64,000 nucleotides of DNA from Candidatus Saccharimonadia bacterium. Lineage in GTDB: Bacteria; Patescibacteriota; Saccharimonadia; UBA4664; JBBRNT01. The stretch lies in the NCBI GenBank assembly GCA_038230095.1, contig JBBRNT010000001.1, positions 112,848-176,847 of the forward strand. Direction: 5' to 3'. Below the pieces are notes generated by a model. It was not told the DNA's origin. It saw only the letters and a list, made by a program, of their open reading frames with translations, and ran no database searches. Positions 1,466 to 22,076 of this stretch are shown here, piece after piece; positions within the stretch are counted from its first letter, which is position 1, and the number at the start of each line of letters is the position of its first letter. The translations under genes and the position numbers were made by a program.

Positions 1466-3244
1466 ATGAACGAAGTTGAGGAGATAAAAGGCCGGCTGGA
1501 GATTGCCGATGTGGTGGGTGGGTATGTGCAGCTGAAGCAAGCTGGGCGCAACCTAAAGGCACCGTGTCCATTCCACCAGGAGAAGACTGCTAGCTTCATG
1601 GTGAGCCCTGAAAAGGGCATATTCCATTGTTTTGGCTGTGGCCAGGGTGGGGACGTCTTCAAATTTGTCATGCTCATAGAGGGTCTAGACTTCCGGTCAG
1701 CACTGGAGCTACTGGCACGGCGGGCTGGGGTGGAGCTGAAGACCAAGAGTGGCCGACCTAAGGAGAATACCGATCGACTGTATGCAGCTATAGAGCTGGC
1801 GGCCAAGTACTTCCAGGCTACCCTGGTAAAGAACCCAAAGGCACTGGAGTATGTAACGAGAGACCGGCGGTTGGGGAAGCAGATTATTACCGACTTTATG
1901 ATTGGCTACGCACCCGAGTCGTGGGAGGCGCTCAGTGGATTCTTGCTGAAGAAAGGCTACACCCAAGACGAGCTCCTGCGGGCGGGGCTAGCGGGTCAGC
2001 GGCCGGAGCGCTCCACAGTATACGACCTATACCGCGGCCGGGTAATGTTTACCATCTCCGATGGGCAGGGGCGGCCGATTGGCTTTACCGGTCGGGTACT
2101 AGACGACTCGCTACCCAAGTACCTGAACACACCCCAGACAGTGCTCTACGACAAGTCCCGCGCCATCTTCGGCCTGCATCTAGCTAAGGAGGCCATTCGG
2201 ACCAAGGATGAGGTGGTGCTGGTAGAAGGCAATATGGACGTCATTGCGAGCCACCAGGCGGGGGTGCGGCAGGTGGTAGCGGCTAGCGGCACGGCGCTGA
2301 CGCTCGACCAGCTGAAGGCGCTGTCCTACCTGAGCAAGAACGTGAAGCTATGCTTTGACGCTGATCGCGCCGGGCTGGCCGCCACTGAGCGGGCCATACC
2401 GCTGGCGCAGAAGCTGGGGCTGAACTTATTCGTGGTGGAGATAGAGGGTGCCAAAGATCCCGATGAGCTTATTCTCCAAGACCCTGCCCTCTGGGAGAAG
2501 GCAATCAAGGATGCCAAGGAGATTCGGGAGTACTGGTACGAGCGGTCTCGGCGGGAGTTTAATATTGATGATAAGCCAAGCGGCATTGATAAGATCCAGT
2601 TTGTGAAACGCATGGCGACTATCCTGCGACTATACGATAATGCGACCCAGCAAGTCTTTGTCCAGCACATGGCAGGTGAGACTGGCATAGAGGAGCAGTC
2701 GTTCCTGGATGCCATTGAGAGCACAGACGAGACTATGCCGACTACCACGCGGACGTCCACGTCTGCGGCTACGGCGCGGATAGCGACCGCAACTGCGGCC
2801 ATAGTGCCCCCGCCTAAGCTAAGTGGTCGAGCCAATATTGAGGTATCGGTGCTTAGCCTGAACCTGGCGTTTCCCGAGGCACGGCTGAGCCTGGAGGACC
2901 TGAGGACTACGGATTTTGCCGATGAACGCCACCAGACTATATTTGATCGGATGATCAGCGAGGGGAGTAATGCCGCTCTGGACCAGCTGGTAAAGGTATT
3001 GCCAGAACAGGCGGATTATGTCAAAATCTTGGCATTGCAAGGCGAAGAAGAATATGCGGATACCGCCCCGGCTGACCGGAGCTTCGTGGCCTTTACCCTA
3101 GCCCGCCGATTGATTGAGCTGGCTAGTCACGACCAGAAAATGACACTAAGTAAACGCCTGAAGGCCGCTGAAGCAAGTGGCGACACTGCGCTGACCCACC
3201 AGATACTTGGTGAGTACCAGGCCATCATGGCAGAGGAGAGATAA
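1466..3244 (+). CDS. dnaG: DNA primase DnaG
   Basis: N-terminal zinc ribbon CPFHQEKTASF...HCFGCGQGGD and a Toprim segment (EGNMDV, DAD). It sits immediately upstream of rpoD in the classic MMS arrangement. Confidence 0.95.
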   Translation: MNEVEEIKGRLEIADVVGGYVQLKQAGRNLKAPCPFHQEKTASFMVSPEKGIFHCFGCGQGGDVFKFVMLIEGLDFRSALELLARRAGVELKTKSGRPKENTDRLYAAIELAAKYFQATLVKNPKALEYVTRDRRLGKQIITDFMIGYAPESWEALSGFLLKKGYTQDELLRAGLAGQRPERSTVYDLYRGRVMFTISDGQGRPIGFTGRVLDDSLPKYLNTPQTVLYDKSRAIFGLHLAKEAIRTKDEVVLVEGNMDVIASHQAGVRQVVAASGTALTLDQLKALSYLSKNVKLCFDADRAGLAATERAIPLAQKLGLNLFVVEIEGAKDPDELILQDPALWEKAIKDAKEIREYWYERSRREFNIDDKPSGIDKIQFVKRMATILRLYDNATQQVFVQHMAGETGIEEQSFLDAIESTDETMPTTTRTSTSAATARIATATAAIVPPPKLSGRANIEVSVLSLNLAFPEARLSLEDLRTTDFADERHQTIFDRMISEGSNAALDQLVKVLPEQADYVKILALQGEEEYADTAPADRSFVAFTLARRLIELASHDQKMTLSKRLKAAEASGDTALTHQILGEYQAIMAEER

Positions 3245-4360
3245 TTGCCTAAGAAAGCTGCAACACCGGAGTCGGAAGAGACCCCGGCTGGATCTGGGTA
3301 TTCCCCGGAGATTGAACGATTAATTGCCAAGGGCAAGGAGCAGGGCTTTGTCACCCAGCAGGAGATAGCCCAGGCTATTCCTGATGCGGAAGATAACCTT
3401 GAGGAGCTGGATGAGTTGTACGCGGCGTTGCTAGAAAACGGCGTAGAGCTGACAGACCAAAAAGAACGACTCATCTGGGACCAATCGGATGAAGAGCCCG
3501 TGGCCGAAGACAACGACGACTACATTAAGGACATTGCCGATGACTCGGTGCGCCTGTACCTACGTGAGATTGGTAAGATTCCGCTCCTTACCGGTGAGCA
3601 GGAAGTGACCCTGGCCAAGCGCATAGAAGCGGGAGACAAGGCAGCTAAGGACGCTATGGCCGAGGCCAATATGCGTCTCGTCGTATCGATTGCTAAGAAG
3701 TATATTGGCCGTGGGCTGGACCTACTTGACCTGATCCAAGAGGGTAATACTGGCTTGCTACGGGCCGTGGAGAAGTTCGACTACACAAAGGGCTACAAAT
3801 TTTCGACCTACGCTACGTGGTGGATTCGCCAGGCTATTACCCGAGCTATTGCCGACCAGGCTCGCACCATCCGCATCCCCGTCCATATGGTAGAGACCAT
3901 AAATAAGCTTATCCGTACTCAGCGCCGTCTGGTGCAGGAGCTGGGCCGCGAGCCTATGCCCGAGGAGATTGCTGCTGAGATGGAAATGGACGTCGATAAG
4001 GTGAACCACATTATTAAGATTAAGCAGGACATTGTATCGCTCGAAGCGCCGGTTGGTGAAGAGGACGACTCGCGTCTTGGTGACTTTATTGAAGACGAGG
4101 AAGCACAGACACCAGCCGAAGCGGCTACCTATCAACTGCTTAAGGAGCATGTAAACCAGGTACTGGCGCTCTTAACACCGCGTGAGCAGAAGATCCTCCG
4201 CATGCGGTTTGGTCTGGAAGATGGCCGCAGCCATACCCTGGAAGAAGTGGGACAAGAGTTCGGTGTTACTCGCGAGCGCATCCGTCAGATTGAGGCCAAG
4301 GCCCTGGCCAAGCTGCGCAAGCACCGCGAAAGCAAGAAGCTTCGCGACTACCTGAGCTAA
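3245..4360 (+). CDS. rpoD: RNA polymerase primary sigma factor (sigma-70/RpoD family)
   Basis: Region 2 motif [54 protein letters not shown]. Region 4 motif [24 protein letters not shown]. The TTG start at 3245 directly abuts the dnaG TAA stop. Confidence 0.95.
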
Positions 4361-4377
4361 GTTAGATGTCTAACCGG

Positions 4378-4400
4378 AAAGCCCCGAAAGGGGCTTTTTT
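4378..4400 (+). terminator. Rho-independent terminator after rpoD
   Basis: AAAGCCCC-GAAA-GGGGCTTT hairpin followed by a T6 run. Confidence 0.8.
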
Positions 4401-4413
4401 GGTGGGCGCATGA

Positions 4414-4442
4414 TTGACTCTGCGCAGAGCGAGTCGTATGGT
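4414..4442 (+). promoter_or_regulatory. candidate sigma70 promoter (TTGACT-17-TATGGT) heading an ORF-poor transcript
   Basis: Hexamers with exact 17-nt spacing. No credible CDS downstream until the hairpin at 4871-4904. Confidence 0.35.
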
Positions 4443-4870
4443 GGAGCTAGGCCAGGGGATCTGTACGCCACTGGTTTGCCGGAGCAGCGAGTCTACCATC
4501 TAATGCTCGCTGCAGTAGTACCGGATACGCCGAGAACAAATGTACTGAGTGTGTTTACACCCATGCCAACGCGGTGCCACGGGGAGACCCACGGACTAGA
4601 TCGAAGTATCTGGACTTGGCCGCAGGCAATTATGCGGGGTTCATCGTCCTCTCGGAAACGACGGAGAACGGTCGTAGCGGAAGCACCACGTACCGCTACG
4701 CAAAACGAAGTGTGGAAGCCCACCCCGTAGGGGTGGACGAACCTCTGGAGCGTGTTGCTGTGATTGCGCACAGTGACGTAGCAACGTCTTCACCGCCTAC
4801 GTGCAATAGATGTAGCAATCTGAAAAACCGGTAAGGGTGTCAGCAGCCGCGTAAACACCCAAATCCGAAA

Positions 4871-4904
4871 GGGCCGTCCGGGAGTTTCGACTCCTGGACG
4901 GCCC
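4871..4904. terminator. very stable 15-bp GC hairpin with UUCG tetraloop; candidate terminator or repeat palindrome
   Basis: GGGCCGTCCGGGAGT-TTCG-ACTCCTGGACGGCCC with one G-U pair. The trailing U-tract is weak (ATTTCC). The 5' arm is near-identical to the hairpin at 5555. Confidence 0.45.
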
Positions 4905-4927
4905 ATTTCCATCTCCGTAGCAAAATC

Positions 4928-4956
4928 TTGACAGTGATCTGGAATAGGACTATCGT
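4928..4956 (+). promoter_or_regulatory. candidate sigma70 promoter (TTGACA-17-TATCGT)
   Basis: Consensus -35 TTGACA, 17-nt spacer, -10 TATCGT. About 600 nt of ORF-poor sequence follows, ending at the terminator at 5555-5598. Confidence 0.4.
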
Positions 4957-5554
4957 ACTTCTCACGTCCGTCGTGGGCTTGCTCACGGCCGACGTGCACC
5001 GATTCCCAACATGCCCGTTCGTGAACGCGGCCACGGGACTCGGTCCAGGGCTCCGGCCCACTTGTCCACACTCGCAGTAGCGAGTCCGCCCTTGCGCCTA
5101 AGGAGTAACGTTGCTGCAACGCATTCGCGCTCCGGTTTCGTAGGTGATCGTCTCCTGATTGCCTACTCGACCACGCTTTCTCGAGCCTCCCTGTTAAGCC
5201 CAAACCAATAGGTGGCGGCCAGTACCGGATCAACGAATCCGGCTGACAGGACTAGGAGGATCAACAACTGGGGATGCATCCACTTGAATGGCAGGATGCC
5301 GCATACGTTCATCATTCACAAGCGATAGTGGCGAATGGTCTGCAACTGGTGCAGTAGACTTCGGTCACCAGTATGATCGTAGACCCTACCGGGTCATGAT
5401 CGGTCTTGGGCCCCCTGGGGGACTTTGCGCGGCATGCTGAGGGCATGTCGAAGCGGCAATTTGGGGAGCACTCGTGCAGCCCTGCCCAAGACCAAGCTCG
5501 TACGAAACAGTCCACCTCCGACCAAGAGGCGCCGGTTGACCGGACTGCTCGATG

Positions 5555-5598
5555 GGGCCGTTCGGGAGCTAGCGCTCCCGAACGGCCCTCTTTCTTTC
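5555..5598 (+). terminator. Rho-independent terminator (15-bp stem, TAGC loop, TCTTTCTTTC tail)
   Basis: GGGCCGTTCGGGAGC-TAGC-GCTCCCGAACGGCCC followed by a T-rich tract. Confidence 0.7.
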
Positions 5599-5699
5599 TA
5601 ACGCCAACAGATTAACAGCCAGATAGGTGGACGGTACAGTCTAGCCCTATTACAATCTGGTATCATCTGGCGTGCGCCCCCAAGTTCCCTACTAGTGAG

Positions 5700-6095
5700 A
5701 TGAGCACCGTGCTTACACTGACGTTTGCTTTGTACCCGCCTTATAATACCGACTGCCTCGAAAGGGGAATACGCGACGCTATTGCCCAGGTCGTGACACA
5801 GTACTACTCCTGGCCAGCAGGCCGACTGACTCTGAGCGTACCCGTCATGAGTGATCTCAGCGCCACACCCTACCCATTCCAGTTGACGCTGGAGCTGCCC
5901 ATGGACTGCTGGCCAGAGACCGATACCAGCGATCTGGCACGTGACGTAGCTATAAAGTCCGTGGCAGCTATCTATCTGCAGCACGCGGGTAATTTGGCTG
6001 TAGCACTTGAGCCAGTAGTGCCATACCGGCTGCCTTGGCGCCTGATCGTAGTTGGCGAAGGCATAGGGGAGTGGTACAGCGACGCCCATTCCTAG
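5700..6095 (+). CDS. hypothetical protein
   Basis: Protein-like composition, and an intrinsic terminator follows. The overlapping minus-strand ORF 5598-6152 is Cys/Trp/His-rich and looks non-coding. Confidence 0.5.
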   Translation: MSTVLTLTFALYPPYNTDCLERGIRDAIAQVVTQYYSWPAGRLTLSVPVMSDLSATPYPFQLTLELPMDCWPETDTSDLARDVAIKSVAAIYLQHAGNLAVALEPVVPYRLPWRLIVVGEGIGEWYSDAHS

Positions 6096-6105
6096 CCCCG
6101 TCCCT

Positions 6106-6142
6106 GGCCCCGCACTCGTGCGGGGCCTATTATTTTGCTTTT
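6106..6142 (+). terminator. Rho-independent terminator
   Basis: GGCCCCGCAC-TCG-GTGCGGGGCC then TATTATTTTGCTTTT. Confidence 0.75.
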
Positions 6143-6450
6143 CCAAGGCCATAATATGCTAAAAAGGTTGTTTCACACTGCTACGACGCGTATGATCAGG
6201 GGGATTGTCCATCTAGTCAAAGTAGGTGATCACTCTGATCAGCCGAGTTCTAGAGTTTCCGGCTTCTAAACAGTTCGCACTCTGCAACAGTTATGGCAAT
6301 AAAGCCGGTTGCTCACATCCAATCCACCTAGAGAGTAGGCAAAGCGTCTGCTCCAACGAATCTCTCAGGAGGCATGATGTGGCAATCTAGTCCAAGTATT
6401 TGCTCGATTGATGTTTCTATTGCAACCAGTGGCAAGGGGAGGGGATAGCA

Positions 6451-6717
6451 ATGAGACAACCACGACCGGCCACACGTATTCGGGCCTACCTGCTGGGTAA
6501 GGACCGCTTTCCGGAAGAGCGTACGCTCGAACACATTCAAAAAGCTTGCGCTGGCGACGACTCGATCGAAGCCCTTCAAGTTGAGCTCGATGCACTGGTG
6601 GCGACGGGGCATGTGGTGCGGAGCGGGTTGCTGTACCAGTTGTCCGACGATGAGCGGCATCAGATCATTGAAGACTTCCGAGTAGCCTTGCGCATGCGAG
6701 GGCGTGTCCGCATGTAA
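6451..6717 (+). CDS. small hypothetical protein (88 aa)
   Basis: Strong SD AGGGGAGGGG lies 6 nt before the ATG. Coding-like composition. Confidence 0.5.
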   Translation: MRQPRPATRIRAYLLGKDRFPEERTLEHIQKACAGDDSIEALQVELDALVATGHVVRSGLLYQLSDDERHQIIEDFRVALRMRGRVRM

Positions 6718-6881
6718 TCGTGGGCTCCGTCTGGACCAGGAGTCTAGACGGAGCCCTTCTGCGTCTTAGTCCTTGCGCTGGTCGCACAGGGCTGCTGCTG
6801 CGCCGTCCCTCTAGTTCACCACTCGTCCCCGGGGGCTTTGCTCCTGGGGACTTCTTGTTTGTATCGGGGTATAATTGGCGT

Positions 6882-9605
6882 ATGAGCAAAAAACCCACCC
6901 TCGTTCTCGTTGACGGTAGCGCGGTATTTCACCGAGGCTATCACGCCATACCGCCACTTTCGAATAAGGATGGCGTGCCTACCAATGCTACCTACGGCTT
7001 TACTACTATTCTGCTTAAGGTCATTGCCGAGCTGAAGCCGACCTACATGGTAATGGCCTGGGACATGAAGGGGCCAACGTTCCGGCACGAGATGTACCCC
7101 GAGTATAAGGGAACGCGGGTAAAGCAGCCGGACGATCTGTATGAACAAATGCCGTGGGCCAGGAAGGTGACGGAGGCATTGGGCATACCCTGGGTGGAGT
7201 TAGCACGCTATGAGGCAGACGACATTATTGGCACCTTTGTGAAACAGTCTGGCGACCTTGATACCATTATTGTGACCGGTGATAAGGATGAGTTCCAGCT
7301 AATCAATGACACTACACGGGTCTACACCATGCAGCGTGGGTTCACTGACACCACCATCTATGACCTGGCCAAAATGCAGGAGCGCTACGGCTTAACGCCC
7401 GGGCAGTTCTTGGACGCTAAGGCGCTAATGGGCGACTCCAGCGATAACATTCCTGGCGTCCCCGGCGTGGGCGAGAAGACGGCTATGGCACTGATCCAGA
7501 ACTATGGCACGCTGGATGCTGTGTATGACAATCTTGAAAAAATACCAGGCAAACTCGGAGAACGGCTGCGAGATAATAAGGAACTGGCCTACCATAGCCA
7601 CGAGCTATCGCGAATTGTGCAGGATGCGCCGGTCAAGCTAGATCTAGCCGCAGCGGAGCTGGGCCAATACAACCGCACGGAGATCCACGATCTATTTCGC
7701 GAGCTCGGCTTTAAAGGGCTTCTCAGCAAGCTCCCGCCGGAAATGGTAGAGACTGTACCAAGCCTGTTTGATCTAGGTGAACCACAGAAGAAGGACCGGG
7801 CGCATCTGAAGTCGGTGAAGTACCATAGCGTAACCACTGAGAAGGATCTAGCTGAGCTCGTGGCCACACTGGAAAAGACCAAGATCTTTGCTATGGACAC
7901 GGAGACTACTGGGCTAGACGTACTGACGGCCGATCTAGTAGGGTTATCATTCTCTGTAAAGCCTGCTGAGGCCTATTATGTGCCGGTAGGGCACCAGGCG
8001 GGTAAGCAGCTGGCTAAGGATGTGGTACTAGGGGCATTGCGGCCAGCATTGACGAATCCGGCTATAGGTAAGGTGGGGCACAATATTAAATACGATTACC
8101 AAATTCTCCACGAGGCTGGTGTGGTGGTGGCGGGGATTGCCTGGGACACTATGATTGCCGCGTTCTTGCTAAACCCCACTGGCCGCACTCAGTCGCTGGA
8201 CGATCTGGCCTTCTCCGAGCTGGGTATAGACATGATCCCAATTACTGAGCTGATTGGTGCAGGTAAGAGCCAGGCTACTTTTGATACTACTGACATCGCC
8301 GAGGCTACTACTTATGCTTGTGAGGACGCCGACATGAGCTGGCGTATCTATGAGAAGCAGGTCGCCGAGATGGGCCATAAGGACGCGGTGGGCGTAGCCA
8401 AGCTGGCTGCAGCTACCGAGTGGCCGCTCATACCCATACTGGCAGACATGGAGCTGGCTGGTATAGAGCTGGACTCCAAGTTCCTGCACGACTTCAATAA
8501 GGTAATCTCGGCCAAGATTCTGGGTCTGGAAGAGGACATTTATAAGGCCGCGGAGCAGCACTTCAACATTGGCTCGCCGTCGCAGCTGGCCGAGATCCTC
8601 TATAACAAGCTAGCGCTGTCGGCAGTGGGCATAAAGAAGGGCAAGACCGGGCTTTCTACAGCTGCCGATCAGCTGGAGAAAATGCGTGGGATGCACCCTA
8701 TCATTGAACTTATTCTCGAGTACCGCGAGCTAATGAAGCTGAAGAATACCTACATAGACACCCTGCCACAGCTAGTAGCGGCCGACGGGCGCGTGCACAC
8801 CAGCTACAGCCAGACAATTGCGGCCACGGGGCGACTTAGCTCTAATAGCCCCAATCTACAGAACATACCAGTGCGCACTGATCTGGGTCGGGAAATCCGT
8901 AAGGCCTTTGTGGCGCCGAAGGGCCGTGTGCTGGTGGGTGCAGACTACTCGCAGATTGAGCTGCGCGTAGCAGCAGCGCTGGCCAAAGACGAGGCTATGA
9001 TCCAGACCTTTCGTGATGGTATAGATCTGCACCAGCAGACGGCTGCTGAGCTGTATACCGTACCGCTAGAGACTGTCACTAAGCAGCAACGCTATAATGC
9101 CAAGACTATTAACTTCGGTGTAATGTACGGCATGAGCGCTCATGGCCTATCTGTCGCCACAGGTATGACGCGTGAGGAGTCGGCTGGGTTTATCCAGCGC
9201 TACTTCGAGGTGCGACCCAAACTGAAGGCCTACATTGAAGAGACGAAGCTATTTGCCCGCGAGCATGAGTACACCGAGACACTATTTGGTCGCCGTCGAC
9301 CCTGCCCGGAGATTAACTCAAACAACCAGATTCTGGTAAACGCGGCCGAGCGCATGGCGGTAAATGTGCCTATTCAGGGCACGGCAGCGGACATTATTAA
9401 GCTGGCCATGATTGCCCTAGTGCCACGGCTGGATGGTGATGCTAGGCTACTACTCCAGATACATGATGAACTCATCATTGAGACTGACGCGAGCAAGGGC
9501 GAGGCAGTAGCGGCACTGATCCGCGATGTGATGACCAATGTATATGACCTGGGCGTGCCGCTGGCGGTGGATACGGAGATTGGGACCAACTGGGGCGAGC
9601 TGTGA
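6882..9605 (+). CDS. polA: DNA polymerase I (5'-3' exonuclease, 3'-5' exonuclease and polymerase domains)
   Basis: N-terminus MSKKPTLVLVDGSAVFHRGYHA is a typical 5' nuclease start. 3'-5' exonuclease motif FAMDTETTGLD. Polymerase motifs RRPCPEINSN, DYSQIELR and QIHDELI. TATAAT at 6870-6875 lies 6 nt before the ATG. Confidence 0.93.
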   Translation: MSKKPTLVLVDGSAVFHRGYHAIPPLSNKDGVPTNATYGFTTILLKVIAELKPTYMVMAWDMKGPTFRHEMYPEYKGTRVKQPDDLYEQMPWARKVTEALGIPWVELARYEADDIIGTFVKQSGDLDTIIVTGDKDEFQLINDTTRVYTMQRGFTDTTIYDLAKMQERYGLTPGQFLDAKALMGDSSDNIPGVPGVGEKTAMALIQNYGTLDAVYDNLEKIPGKLGERLRDNKELAYHSHELSRIVQDAPVKLDLAAAELGQYNRTEIHDLFRELGFKGLLSKLPPEMVETVPSLFDLGEPQKKDRAHLKSVKYHSVTTEKDLAELVATLEKTKIFAMDTETTGLDVLTADLVGLSFSVKPAEAYYVPVGHQAGKQLAKDVVLGALRPALTNPAIGKVGHNIKYDYQILHEAGVVVAGIAWDTMIAAFLLNPTGRTQSLDDLAFSELGIDMIPITELIGAGKSQATFDTTDIAEATTYACEDADMSWRIYEKQVAEMGHKDAVGVAKLAAATEWPLIPILADMELAGIELDSKFLHDFNKVISAKILGLEEDIYKAAEQHFNIGSPSQLAEILYNKLALSAVGIKKGKTGLSTAADQLEKMRGMHPIIELILEYRELMKLKNTYIDTLPQLVAADGRVHTSYSQTIAATGRLSSNSPNLQNIPVRTDLGREIRKAFVAPKGRVLVGADYSQIELRVAAALAKDEAMIQTFRDGIDLHQQTAAELYTVPLETVTKQQRYNAKTINFGVMYGMSAHGLSVATGMTREESAGFIQRYFEVRPKLKAYIEETKLFAREHEYTETLFGRRRPCPEINSNNQILVNAAERMAVNVPIQGTAADIIKLAMIALVPRLDGDARLLLQIHDELIIETDASKGEAVAALIRDVMTNVYDLGVPLAVDTEIGTNWGEL

Positions 9606-20962: not shown

Positions 20963-21055
20963 CCGTTTTATGCTAATATAGTCGTTATCGCTTCGCACTT
21001 GCGTCGTGAGCACCAGACGCTGACCCGAGAGGGCAGCTATCGAGAAAGACCATCC

Positions 21056-21445
21056 ATGACCCGATTCCTCACCTGCAGCAACAACCACACCATCGCCGTC
21101 ATCAGCGCGGCCGACCGGGAGCTGCTCCGGCAGCGCAACACGACCGAGAGCTTCATCGCTTCCGGGGGTGTGATCTTCACCTTCGTGAGCCCCGACATTT
21201 GGGAGCAGCTGGCGGTGTTCTCACACGGCATCCCCTTCCACACCGGCACCACCGAGGACATGGCGGTCCTACTCGCCGGCCATGAGGTCGACAGCGACTT
21301 CTTCCACGTCCCGTTCTCGAACTCGTTCGAGTACGACCCTGGCGAGAACGGTCAGCTGGAGCGGATGTACCGCACCACGCTCCGTCAGGCCATCGAGGGC
21401 TTCGGCCTGCGCCGCGACCTGCCTCTGGCTACCACTCGGGTCTGA
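21056..21445 (+). CDS. hypothetical protein in GC-rich cassette
   Basis: Markedly C-ending codons compared with neighbours. Followed by a GC hairpin repeat. Confidence 0.45.
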   Translation: MTRFLTCSNNHTIAVISAADRELLRQRNTTESFIASGGVIFTFVSPDIWEQLAVFSHGIPFHTGTTEDMAVLLAGHEVDSDFFHVPFSNSFEYDPGENGQLERMYRTTLRQAIEGFGLRRDLPLATTRV

Positions 21446-21461: not shown

Positions 21462-21495
21462 TGTCGTTCCGGCCCCCTTCGGGGGCCGGGCGGCA
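21462..21495. repeat. GC-rich hairpin repeat copy 1 (CCGGCCCCC-TTCG-GGGGGCCGG core)
   Basis: Lies immediately after the stop of the upstream CDS. About 90 percent identical to the copy at 22043-22076. Confidence 0.7.
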
Positions 21496-21622
21496 AGCTA
21501 CCTTGTGATCTGATAAGAGACCAAACTCTAACCAGATCGCAAGAACTGGCCAACAGATTTATTATCTGCTGGAGCACTTCGACAATCCACCGGCCCGCTA
21601 TGGCCCCGTCTCTGAGGAGAAC

Positions 21623-22037
21623 CATGAATACTACTCGAACCCCGCAAGTTGGCGACTTGGTGGCTATCACGGGCGAACTGCCGAGCTTCGGCGTTGTTAC
21701 TCGATTTGATGGTGACCGGTTCTTCTTCAAGGACCCTGGTAGCAACCTCGATGTCGCCATGGCTCCGGCTCCCGATGAGCCCTACGTCGTGATCTCGGTC
21801 GACGAGGCCAAAAGCTTTCTCGAAAAGCTACTGGACGCCATTCTTACCGACACGGCCTACCTGGGCGAAGGCTTCGCCAACTGGATGCGAGAGCAGTTCA
21901 AGGTTGCGATTCCGGTGCGACCCGTGCTCGATGAGAAGTCCATGTCATACTTCATGACACTGGCTGTCGCGACCTGGCCGGGGGACAGTGTCCGCATGGC
22001 GCTCATGCTCTGGGCGCTGTTCGGCTGGCCAGTCTGA
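21623..22037 (+). CDS. hypothetical protein in GC-rich cassette
   Basis: ATG follows GAGGAGAACC. Same codon bias as the preceding small gene. Confidence 0.45.
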
Positions 22038-22042
22038 TCACC

Positions 22043-22076
22043 GTCGTTCCGGCCCCTTCGGGGGTCGGGACGGCAA
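22043..22076. repeat. GC-rich hairpin repeat copy 2
   Basis: GTCGTTCCGGCCCCTTCGGGGGTCGGGACGGCAA, directly after the stop of the upstream CDS. Confidence 0.7.

Follow-up and report, generated by a model that had tools for sequence, protein, structure and literature searches.

Several kinds of large bacterial noncoding RNA (ncRNA), among them OLE, GOLLD, ROOL, HEARO, and raiA, are hundreds of nucleotides (nt) long, densely structured, and encoded as stand-alone units of narrow range in variable or accessory DNA. Here we describe a stretch of 64,000 nt (the window) from a Candidatus Saccharimonadia bacterium (assembly GCA_038230095.1, contig JBBRNT010000001.1, positions 112,848 to 176,847), in which the gap between rpoD and polA holds a promoter-to-terminator unit, U2 (4928-5600), that may encode an RNA of this general kind. 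U2 is similar to these large RNAs in its length, dense structure, stand-alone organization, narrow range, and accessory location, whereas its distribution is far narrower (2-3 genomes) and its structure is derived from thermodynamics and preserved helix arms, not from real covariation. None of the Rfam models of these RNAs matched U2. The single hit, a HEARO fragment of 13.7 bits in L162, the contig of a relative, lies on the minus strand inside the homolog of a neighboring open reading frame (ORF), ORF131, and was rejected as noise.

Two other described systems share part of this layout. Island-encoded orphan small RNAs (sRNAs) such as the Salmonella Isr RNAs likewise have their own sigma-70 promoter and Rho-independent terminator, contain no ORF, are located in a variable hot spot, and are poorly conserved beyond close relatives. 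Unlike these, U2 exceeds typical base-pairing sRNAs several-fold in length and has no identified target complementarity, and its host is an epibiont of the Candidate Phyla Radiation (CPR). Bacterial RNase P RNA (RNaseP_bact_a and RNaseP_bact_b), which the initial annotation had considered, is of the same size order, and strings similar to its conserved regions (CR) CR-I (the 5′ strand of helix P4, P4-5′), CR-IV, and CR-V (P4-3′) occur in U2 in that order. In contrast to RNase P RNA, U2 has no covariance-model match, no specific P4, and no CR-II, and it is duplicated, recombined, and not conserved among close relatives.

The reading we prefer, to which we give about an even chance, is that U2 (~4963-5599) would be a stand-alone structured ncRNA gene restricted to a narrow clade of Saccharibacteria. 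Its sigma-70-like promoter at 4928-4956 is composed of a -35 hexamer TTGACA (4928-4933), a 17-nt spacer, and a -10 hexamer TATCGT (4951-4956); with 10 of 12 consensus matches it is the top-scoring site in 4000-7000, which bears out the near-consensus promoter of the initial annotation, and transcription would start near 4963 (these and all features of the gap units given below are on the + strand). The strong intrinsic terminator that had been proposed to close the unit, with a 15-bp stem at 5555-5598, also held, now as a 16-bp stem at 5554-5589 with 12 G-C pairs and a 4-nt loop, followed by the tail CTTTCTTTCT (5554-5599 as a whole). The claim that no credible coding sequence lies in between was confirmed in three ways. 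No frame of 4921-5600 had a positive codon-usage log-likelihood (best ~0.0, against a mean of 0.36 for trusted genes), a Pfam search of ten ORFs of the gap gave no match, and stop-codon recoding or alternative codes revealed no long + strand ORF within the promoter-terminator bounds of U2 or of the preceding unit, U1; TAG, TAA, and TGA all serve as stops in trusted genes. A decayed protein gene, which the initial annotation had raised as the contrary outcome, is unsupported by these Pfam searches and by a tblastx comparison of both units with related loci totalling 1.66 Mb, where nothing fell below E 0.009 and the matches at that level were scattered. Hence a promoter and an intrinsic terminator of its own bracket a non-coding stretch, as expected of a stand-alone ncRNA gene, and this reading is further supported because a CPR genome as gene-dense as this one rarely keeps 1.2 kb of junk.

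Fold stability points in the same direction. Folding energies were expressed as z scores against dinucleotide shuffles, with 21 coding stretches of the same genome, 500 nt each, as controls. U2 scores -4.8 at full length and -3.5 and -4.5 in two 500-nt segments, the first of which excludes the terminator, U1 scores -4.6 and -3.3, and the corresponding unit of L162 -4.0, while the controls have a mean of 0.0 and a standard deviation of 1.15 with a minimum of -2.8. The 5′-terminal hairpin of U2 (4963-4996) is itself very stable, with 14 pairs, -21 kcal/mol, and z -3.4, and occupies 93% of the ensemble.

The most informative comparison is with L162 (Logan ERR14064713, anchored by a PolA of 87% identity), which has one non-coding unit, an ORF131 homolog, and a downstream leader described below. 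The unit lies between rpoD and the ORF131 homolog, is bounded by a promoter TTGACG-17-TATCGT (143-171) and a terminator (~628-665), and no gene is called across it. At the four-fold degenerate sites of polA, only 39% of positions agree between L162 and the window, and for another relative, L163, 35-38% of four-fold sites agree. With neutral positions saturated to this degree, any non-coding block that can still be aligned implies constraint. From a small hairpin, hairpin h, onward L162 is collinear with U2 at similar spacing: 5224-5242 corresponds to 318-336, 5279-5295 to 370-386 (88%), and 5395-5423 to 508-536 (79%), then CCCAAGACC in U2 corresponds to CCCAGGACC in L162, and the terminator follows in both. 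It is this collinearity of blocks and their similar spacing that make the match credible. The second block is the conserved motif UCCACUUGAAUGGCAGG (UCCACUUGARUGG), identical at 15 of 17 positions. Moreover, the first bases of a third contig, L164 (GCCC TTTTCAATT), represent the same kind of terminator end in a third genome.

The third block opens a four-way-junction domain (5402-5493; ortholog L162 515-593), which folds independently to the same junction in both sequences. Its closing helix of 9-10 bp, GGUCUUGGG(C)/(G)CCCAAGACC, brings together arms that are ~75 nt apart and both kept in L162, and encloses three hairpins, of which the first is CCC-N4-GGG, the second long, and the third short. 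All of the 12 pairs counted in the closing helix and in CCC-N4-GGG are preserved in L162, one pair of the closing helix through a compensatory change from U-A to C-G, while the other two inner hairpins are kept in position and not in sequence.

Hairpin h connects U2 to its sister unit. U1 (4414-4910) starts with a promoter TTGACT-17-TATGGT (4414-4442), continues for ~460 nt without a strong or conserved coding signal, and ends in a terminator-like hairpin (4870-4904) whose T-tract is weak (ATTTCC), so that read-through into U2 is possible. Hairpin h is found as CCGGAU-CAACGA-AUCCGG in U2 (5225-5242), as the paralogous CUAGAU-CGAAGU-AUCUGG in U1 (4596-4613), and as the orthologous CCGGAU-CGCAGU-AUCCGG in L162 (319-336); among these three copies, U1 differs from the other two by a compensatory change from A-U to G-C and a half-compensatory one from U-G to C-G. 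The terminator stems of U1 and U2 are also paralogous, with 26 of 34 positions identical and paired changes. Apart from hairpin h and this stem nothing is clearly common to the two units, and a global identity of 42%, about the level of noise, rules out full-length paralogy.

The relation to L162 is different for the two units. The 5′ 205 nt of U1 (4414-4618) match L162 143-341 with an nhmmer E of 4.6e-7, promoter hexamers and 17-nt spacing included, and are the best conserved part of U1 and U2 in L162, with 67% identity over 54 nt for the promoter hexamers and the initial ~45 transcribed nt and 79% over 39 nt for the region of hairpin h. Thus the L162 unit would be an apparent chimera of the 5′ part of U1 and the 3′ part of U2, joined at hairpin h as the apparent crossover point. 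The simplest history may be that two old partial paralogs stood in tandem and that the lineage of L162 lost the DNA from one shared hairpin to the other; alternatively, a duplication occurred in the lineage of the window. Such a module swap between tandem RNA units, if real, would be an uncommon case of RNA-gene evolution by recombination.

The initial annotation had left open whether U2 is a divergent RNase P RNA or an unrelated, possibly novel, ncRNA. Its three RNase P-like segments are present and in the right order, at GGTCCAGGGCTCC (5042-5054), AAGCCCAAACCAATAGGTGG (5196-5215), and ACGAATCCGGCTGACAGG (5233-5250), with small errors in the coordinates first reported (5047-5059 for the first). 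Edit distances to the consensus strings it had used are 2, 4, and 3, and their sum of 9 is lower than that of any of 212 control windows of 591 nt from both strands (mean 13.0, minimum 10), which places U2 first among 213. The resemblance of the three strings is therefore real, yet it does not exceed what the top-ranking window of a scan over 64 kb should show. Taken singly, we judge the CR-IV-like string (5196-5215) a chance resemblance, its edit distance of 4 being equalled by 20% of the 591-nt windows in that scan, and likewise the P4-5′-like string GGUCCAGGGCUCC (5042-5054), which has no counterpart in L162. It might further be held in favor of RNase P that RNase P RNAs of CPR bacteria are divergent, fall below default Rfam thresholds, and need lowered ones (PMC8172020). 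For this reason, in addition to a search of the 64 kb at Rfam gathering thresholds, which gave no matches and hence no rnpB elsewhere in the window, itself part of a 181-kb contig, the unit was searched at E<=10 with lax filters as stretches of 1451 nt and 597 nt. The RNase P families (RNaseP_bact_a, RNaseP_bact_b, and RNaseP_arch), the covariance-model check that the initial annotation had proposed, were absent from both searches and from the L162 unit. Since matches of other families at 13-27 bits were listed, an RNase P match of ~15-20 bits would have shown; at this E limit, U2, the leader, and the L162 ortholog yielded nothing but terminator-like noise.

Structural features give the same answer. 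Pairing between 5038-5060 and 5228-5252, the proposed P4, gives a duplex with interruptions at -11.1 kcal/mol, and the first motif pairs equally well or better with 77% of the other 25-mers of U2, so that the pairing is not specific; a long-range P4 helix between CR-I (…AGUCCGGG…) and CR-V (…CCCGGCUU…) was not found in U2. Instead, the P4-3′ string forms the 3′ arm of the local hairpin h, which is conserved. The module of CR-II and CR-III (J11/12-J12/13, of the type GGGUGAAA…GGUAAGAGCGCACC) is not visible and is recovered by no covariance-model alignment, in agreement with the lack of CR-II noted earlier. Furthermore, motifs 1 and 2 lie within the 5′ 60% of U2 and have no counterpart in L162, and neither L163 (PolA 81%) nor a further relative, L002, has U2 in its syntenic gap, a test of synteny that bears on this position only, as the rnpB of these relatives could be elsewhere. 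Loss of the motifs in one genome and of the unit in another is unlike an essential universal RNA, and a tandem partial paralog together with recombination is implausible for an essential single-copy gene. The RNase P reading of U2 is effectively refuted, and we regard a divergent RNase P RNA here as scarcely credible. What remains of the earlier pair of options is the ncRNA, as the best reading on thin support. The main practical result is thus a negative one, that the RNase P RNA of this genome is something other than U2, so that annotators should seek rnpB elsewhere.

Several observations weigh against a functional ncRNA gene. L162 is the only informative relative, its chimeric unit is difficult to reconcile with two RNAs of precise fold, and the match of U2 alone to L162 is not significant (nhmmer E 0.14). 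The 5′ 60% of U2 (4963-5223) has no homolog anywhere searched, the U2 promoter falls in the segment missing from L162 and so lacks comparative support, and neither L163 nor L002 nor any of ~160 other rpoD loci contains the unit. As for covariation, there is a single compensatory pair in the junction helix and a single one in hairpin h, and for the junction this is statistically empty, with 252 of 500 shuffles doing as well on two sequences. Finally, when the minimum free energy (MFE) is regressed on GC over all 600-nt windows of the genome, a cruder control than shuffling, the region stands at only -1.55 standard deviations. Some of these points would suit a non-functional remnant, in which U1 and U2 are decaying leftovers of acquired cassettes in an indel hot spot and their signals persist by inertia or serve the neighbors; it would explain why the gap content is different in L002, L163, and L162, why most of U2 cannot be aligned, why the adjoining ORF131 also evolves very fast (41% against 87% for PolA), and why the GC-regressed MFE is unexceptional. 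At 39% four-fold identity, however, no blocks should align by inertia, whereas the promoter hexamers and their spacing, hairpin h, and both long-range helix arms are kept, three independent units fold at z <= -3.3 against 0 +/- 1.15 in controls, and neither tblastx nor Pfam shows any trace of a former protein. We consider a remnant somewhat unlikely, yet a serious rival and the strongest of the competing readings.

A different possibility is that the unit serves ORF131, either as a cis-acting attenuator or very long 5′ leader, with its terminator controlling read-through into this gene, or as an RNA antagonist of its protein, in the layout of type III toxin-antitoxin systems (ToxIN, CptIN, and TenpIN). 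Such systems similarly combine a structured RNA, a strong terminator, and a small fast-evolving protein gene, and the order of RNA unit, terminator, and ORF131 is the same in the window, L162, and apparently L164, with the RNA unit and ORF131 both being fast-evolving orphans of the same narrow distribution. On the other hand, U2 has no tandem repeats (nothing at a score >= 30 with TRF, and only chance-level 14-19-mers among direct-repeat families in 4400-5700), a promoter distinct from that of U2 stands past the terminator and in front of ORF131, no alternative pairing that could serve as an antiterminator was detected, and ORF131 has neither a Pfam family at E<=1, the ToxN family included, nor a nuclease-like fold. 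Its promoter keeps its position in the three genomes (TTAACA/TTGACA, 17 nt, TACAGT/TAGAGT/TAGATT). Membership in the type III systems was accordingly rejected, there being no antitoxin repeats and no recognizable toxin of the ToxN, CptN, or TenpN type in ORF131, and an ORF131-linked role in general appears improbable. Still less probable, and in our view very unlikely, is that U2 codes for small proteins, one or several, that ORF heuristics overlooked. A 27-codon ORF from 5275 overlaps the conserved motif and a 10-codon ORF follows AAGGAG at 5111, yet in L162 the frame over the motif has a stop (CCA CUU GAG UGG UAG), codon usage gives no positive signal in any frame, and the start codon is badly spaced from the Shine-Dalgarno-like sequence.

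If U2 is indeed a structured ncRNA gene, its near-consensus sigma-70 promoter would start a transcript of ~600-640 nt, in which a very stable 5′ hairpin would come first, followed by several folded domains. With the 16-bp intrinsic terminator at its 3′ end, the transcript would be shielded from exonucleases by a hairpin at either end, and selection would keep at least hairpin h (5225-5242), the motif at 5279-5295, and the four-way junction (5402-5493). Given its size, its dense structure, and its place in a variable island, next to an orphan gene of the same distribution, we infer that the RNA would act in trans, for example as a protein-binding scaffold or decoy, with an accessory and not a housekeeping role. 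A short antisense regulator seems less likely because of the length, the dense structure, and the lack of long complementarity to the neighbors. More speculatively, and with a small chance of being correct, U1, U2, and the L162 unit could define a family, new and confined to a clade of Saccharibacteria, of large (0.5-0.65 kb), modular, and fast-diversifying structured RNAs that exchange modules by recombination at the shared hairpin and work together with ORF131, for example as an accessory system of RNA and protein for host interaction or defense in these epibionts. If real, U2 would be a large structured CPR RNA without an Rfam family, and in genomes as tiny as these, non-coding stretches of 0.5-1.2 kb are uncommon and little studied. 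With a distribution of 2-3 metagenomic contigs, it would take transcriptomes or more genomes to learn much about it.

ORF131 (5700-6095) belongs to a cassette at 5612-6137 that has its own promoter and a terminator at 6106-6127. It is an orphan with only 3 real homologs in profile searches of 5.8 billion and 1.84 billion proteins, and its amino-acid identity of 41% to L162 and 73% to L164, compared with 87% for PolA of L162, indicates a far faster evolution than that of its neighbors. Its AlphaFold model has low confidence (pLDDT 62) and a ferredoxin-like topology (beta-alpha-beta-beta-alpha-beta), and Foldseek returned generic ferredoxin-like matches at E > 0.04, no PDB match at E < 0.001, and no nuclease-like fold.

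The only useful relatives came through protein anchors. Besides L162, these are L163 (JGI 3300081890; PolA 81%, RpoD 96%), which has a cassette with a 204-amino-acid (aa) gene in place of U1 and U2, L164 (ENA ERZ27314309, 1.76 kb; ORF131 73%), which begins inside a U2-type terminator, and L001 (ENA ERZ28573577, 2.1 kb; RpoD 100% at the amino-acid and 87% at the nucleotide level), which stops 125 nt past rpoD. L001 (2061-2140) and L164 (1-60) break at the edges of U1 and U2, which fits low coverage and also strain-level heterogeneity. Outside this set, the closest RpoD relatives are Saccharibacteria metagenome-assembled genomes (MAGs) with 76% identity among GTDB genomes and 74% among JGI metagenomes, and the 160 rpoD loci collected from these two sources showed no similarity to U1 or U2 with single-sequence or profile nhmmer. 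Searches based on ORF131 and on DnaG found no further U2 orthologs, the two closest contigs of the DnaG search stopping before or inside rpoD. No match was obtained by blastn of 4360-6720 against phage and plasmid collections (including distant matches) or by scanning three conserved patterns over viral contigs.

The window is gene-dense DNA of ~55% GC from a MAG of Saccharibacteria (TM7, CPR), and the locus has the order dnaG (1466-3244), rpoD (3245-4360, directly after dnaG and forming the 5′ border of the gap), gap, and polA. The long polA ORF of 961 aa, as in the NCBI protein P0001, starts at GTG 6720, which is probably too early. Two close homologs have 907 aa and begin at residues equivalent to ATG 6882, from which we take the true start to be ATG 6882 and the gap to be 4361-6881; a terminator-like hairpin (6825-6851) lies inside the 5′ extension of the long ORF (6720-6881). 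Exact-protein look-ups of ORF131, ORF88, and the 961-aa PolA call returned no record, and a tRNA and tmRNA search of the window found none. The gap comprises four promoter-to-terminator units, namely U1 (4414-4910), U2 (4928-5600), the ORF131 cassette (5612-6137), and a unit containing ORF88 (6168-~6861), and 4000-7000 has 7 promoter-like sites against 1.7 +/- 1.4 in shuffles. Judged from its sequence in the relatives, the gap is a hypervariable accessory interval, since its content is different in each of them, being 445 nt with an antisense ORF in L002, the 204-aa gene cassette in L163, and one chimeric unit in L162. The L163 cassette of ~830 bp is located between exact 28-bp direct repeats CATATCTGATTTGCGCAGTACTTATGCT (7517-7544 and 8374-8401), has a perfect promoter TTGACA-16-TATAAT in front of its orphan 204-aa gene, and sits where the window has U1, U2, and ORF131; such a repeat-flanked cassette at the same position points to an insertion hot spot extending from rpoD to the leader.

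That leader of ~190 nt, 600 nt downstream of U2 (window 6168-6389; L162 1229-1440; L163 8440-8655; L164 584-792), is the best conserved non-coding element of the locus, being 86-90% identical in four genomes whose four-fold sites are ~35-50% identical, that is, near saturation, and it is a more promising RNA element than U2. Its promoter TTGNNN-17-TATGAT is conserved, and in the consensus fold its 5′ end (GAUUGUCCAUC) pairs with the region of the Shine-Dalgarno sequence and start codon (GAUGUGGCAAUC; AGGAGGC AUGAUGUGGCAAUC), which would account for the invariant codons for 'MMWQS'. One hairpin shows a two-pair compensatory change in L163. With no match in Rfam at E<=10, the leader is a candidate for a new riboswitch-like or translational-control element, or for an sRNA. 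The gene behind it encodes in L162 (1428-2111) a putative secreted protein of 227 aa, which has a probable signal or transmembrane segment and weakly matches the Transglycosylase-like family (PF06737, E 0.002), and in L163 (8643-9563) an otherwise unrelated-looking protein of 306 aa with similarity confined to the N-terminus. In the window (6374-6448) and in L164 a 24-codon remnant is left, followed by ORF88 (6451-6717 in the window), and the leader is thus kept even where the downstream gene is lost.

Farther along the window, two G+C-rich terminator-like hairpins GTCGTTCCGGCCCC…GGGGCCGGGCGGCAA at 21463-21496 and 22043-22076 are 82% identical and 580 nt apart. Each of them trails a small ORF (20999-21445 and ~21625-22037) in a region with a local GC of 0.605, and these pairs of ORF and hairpin may be paralogous small-gene cassettes.

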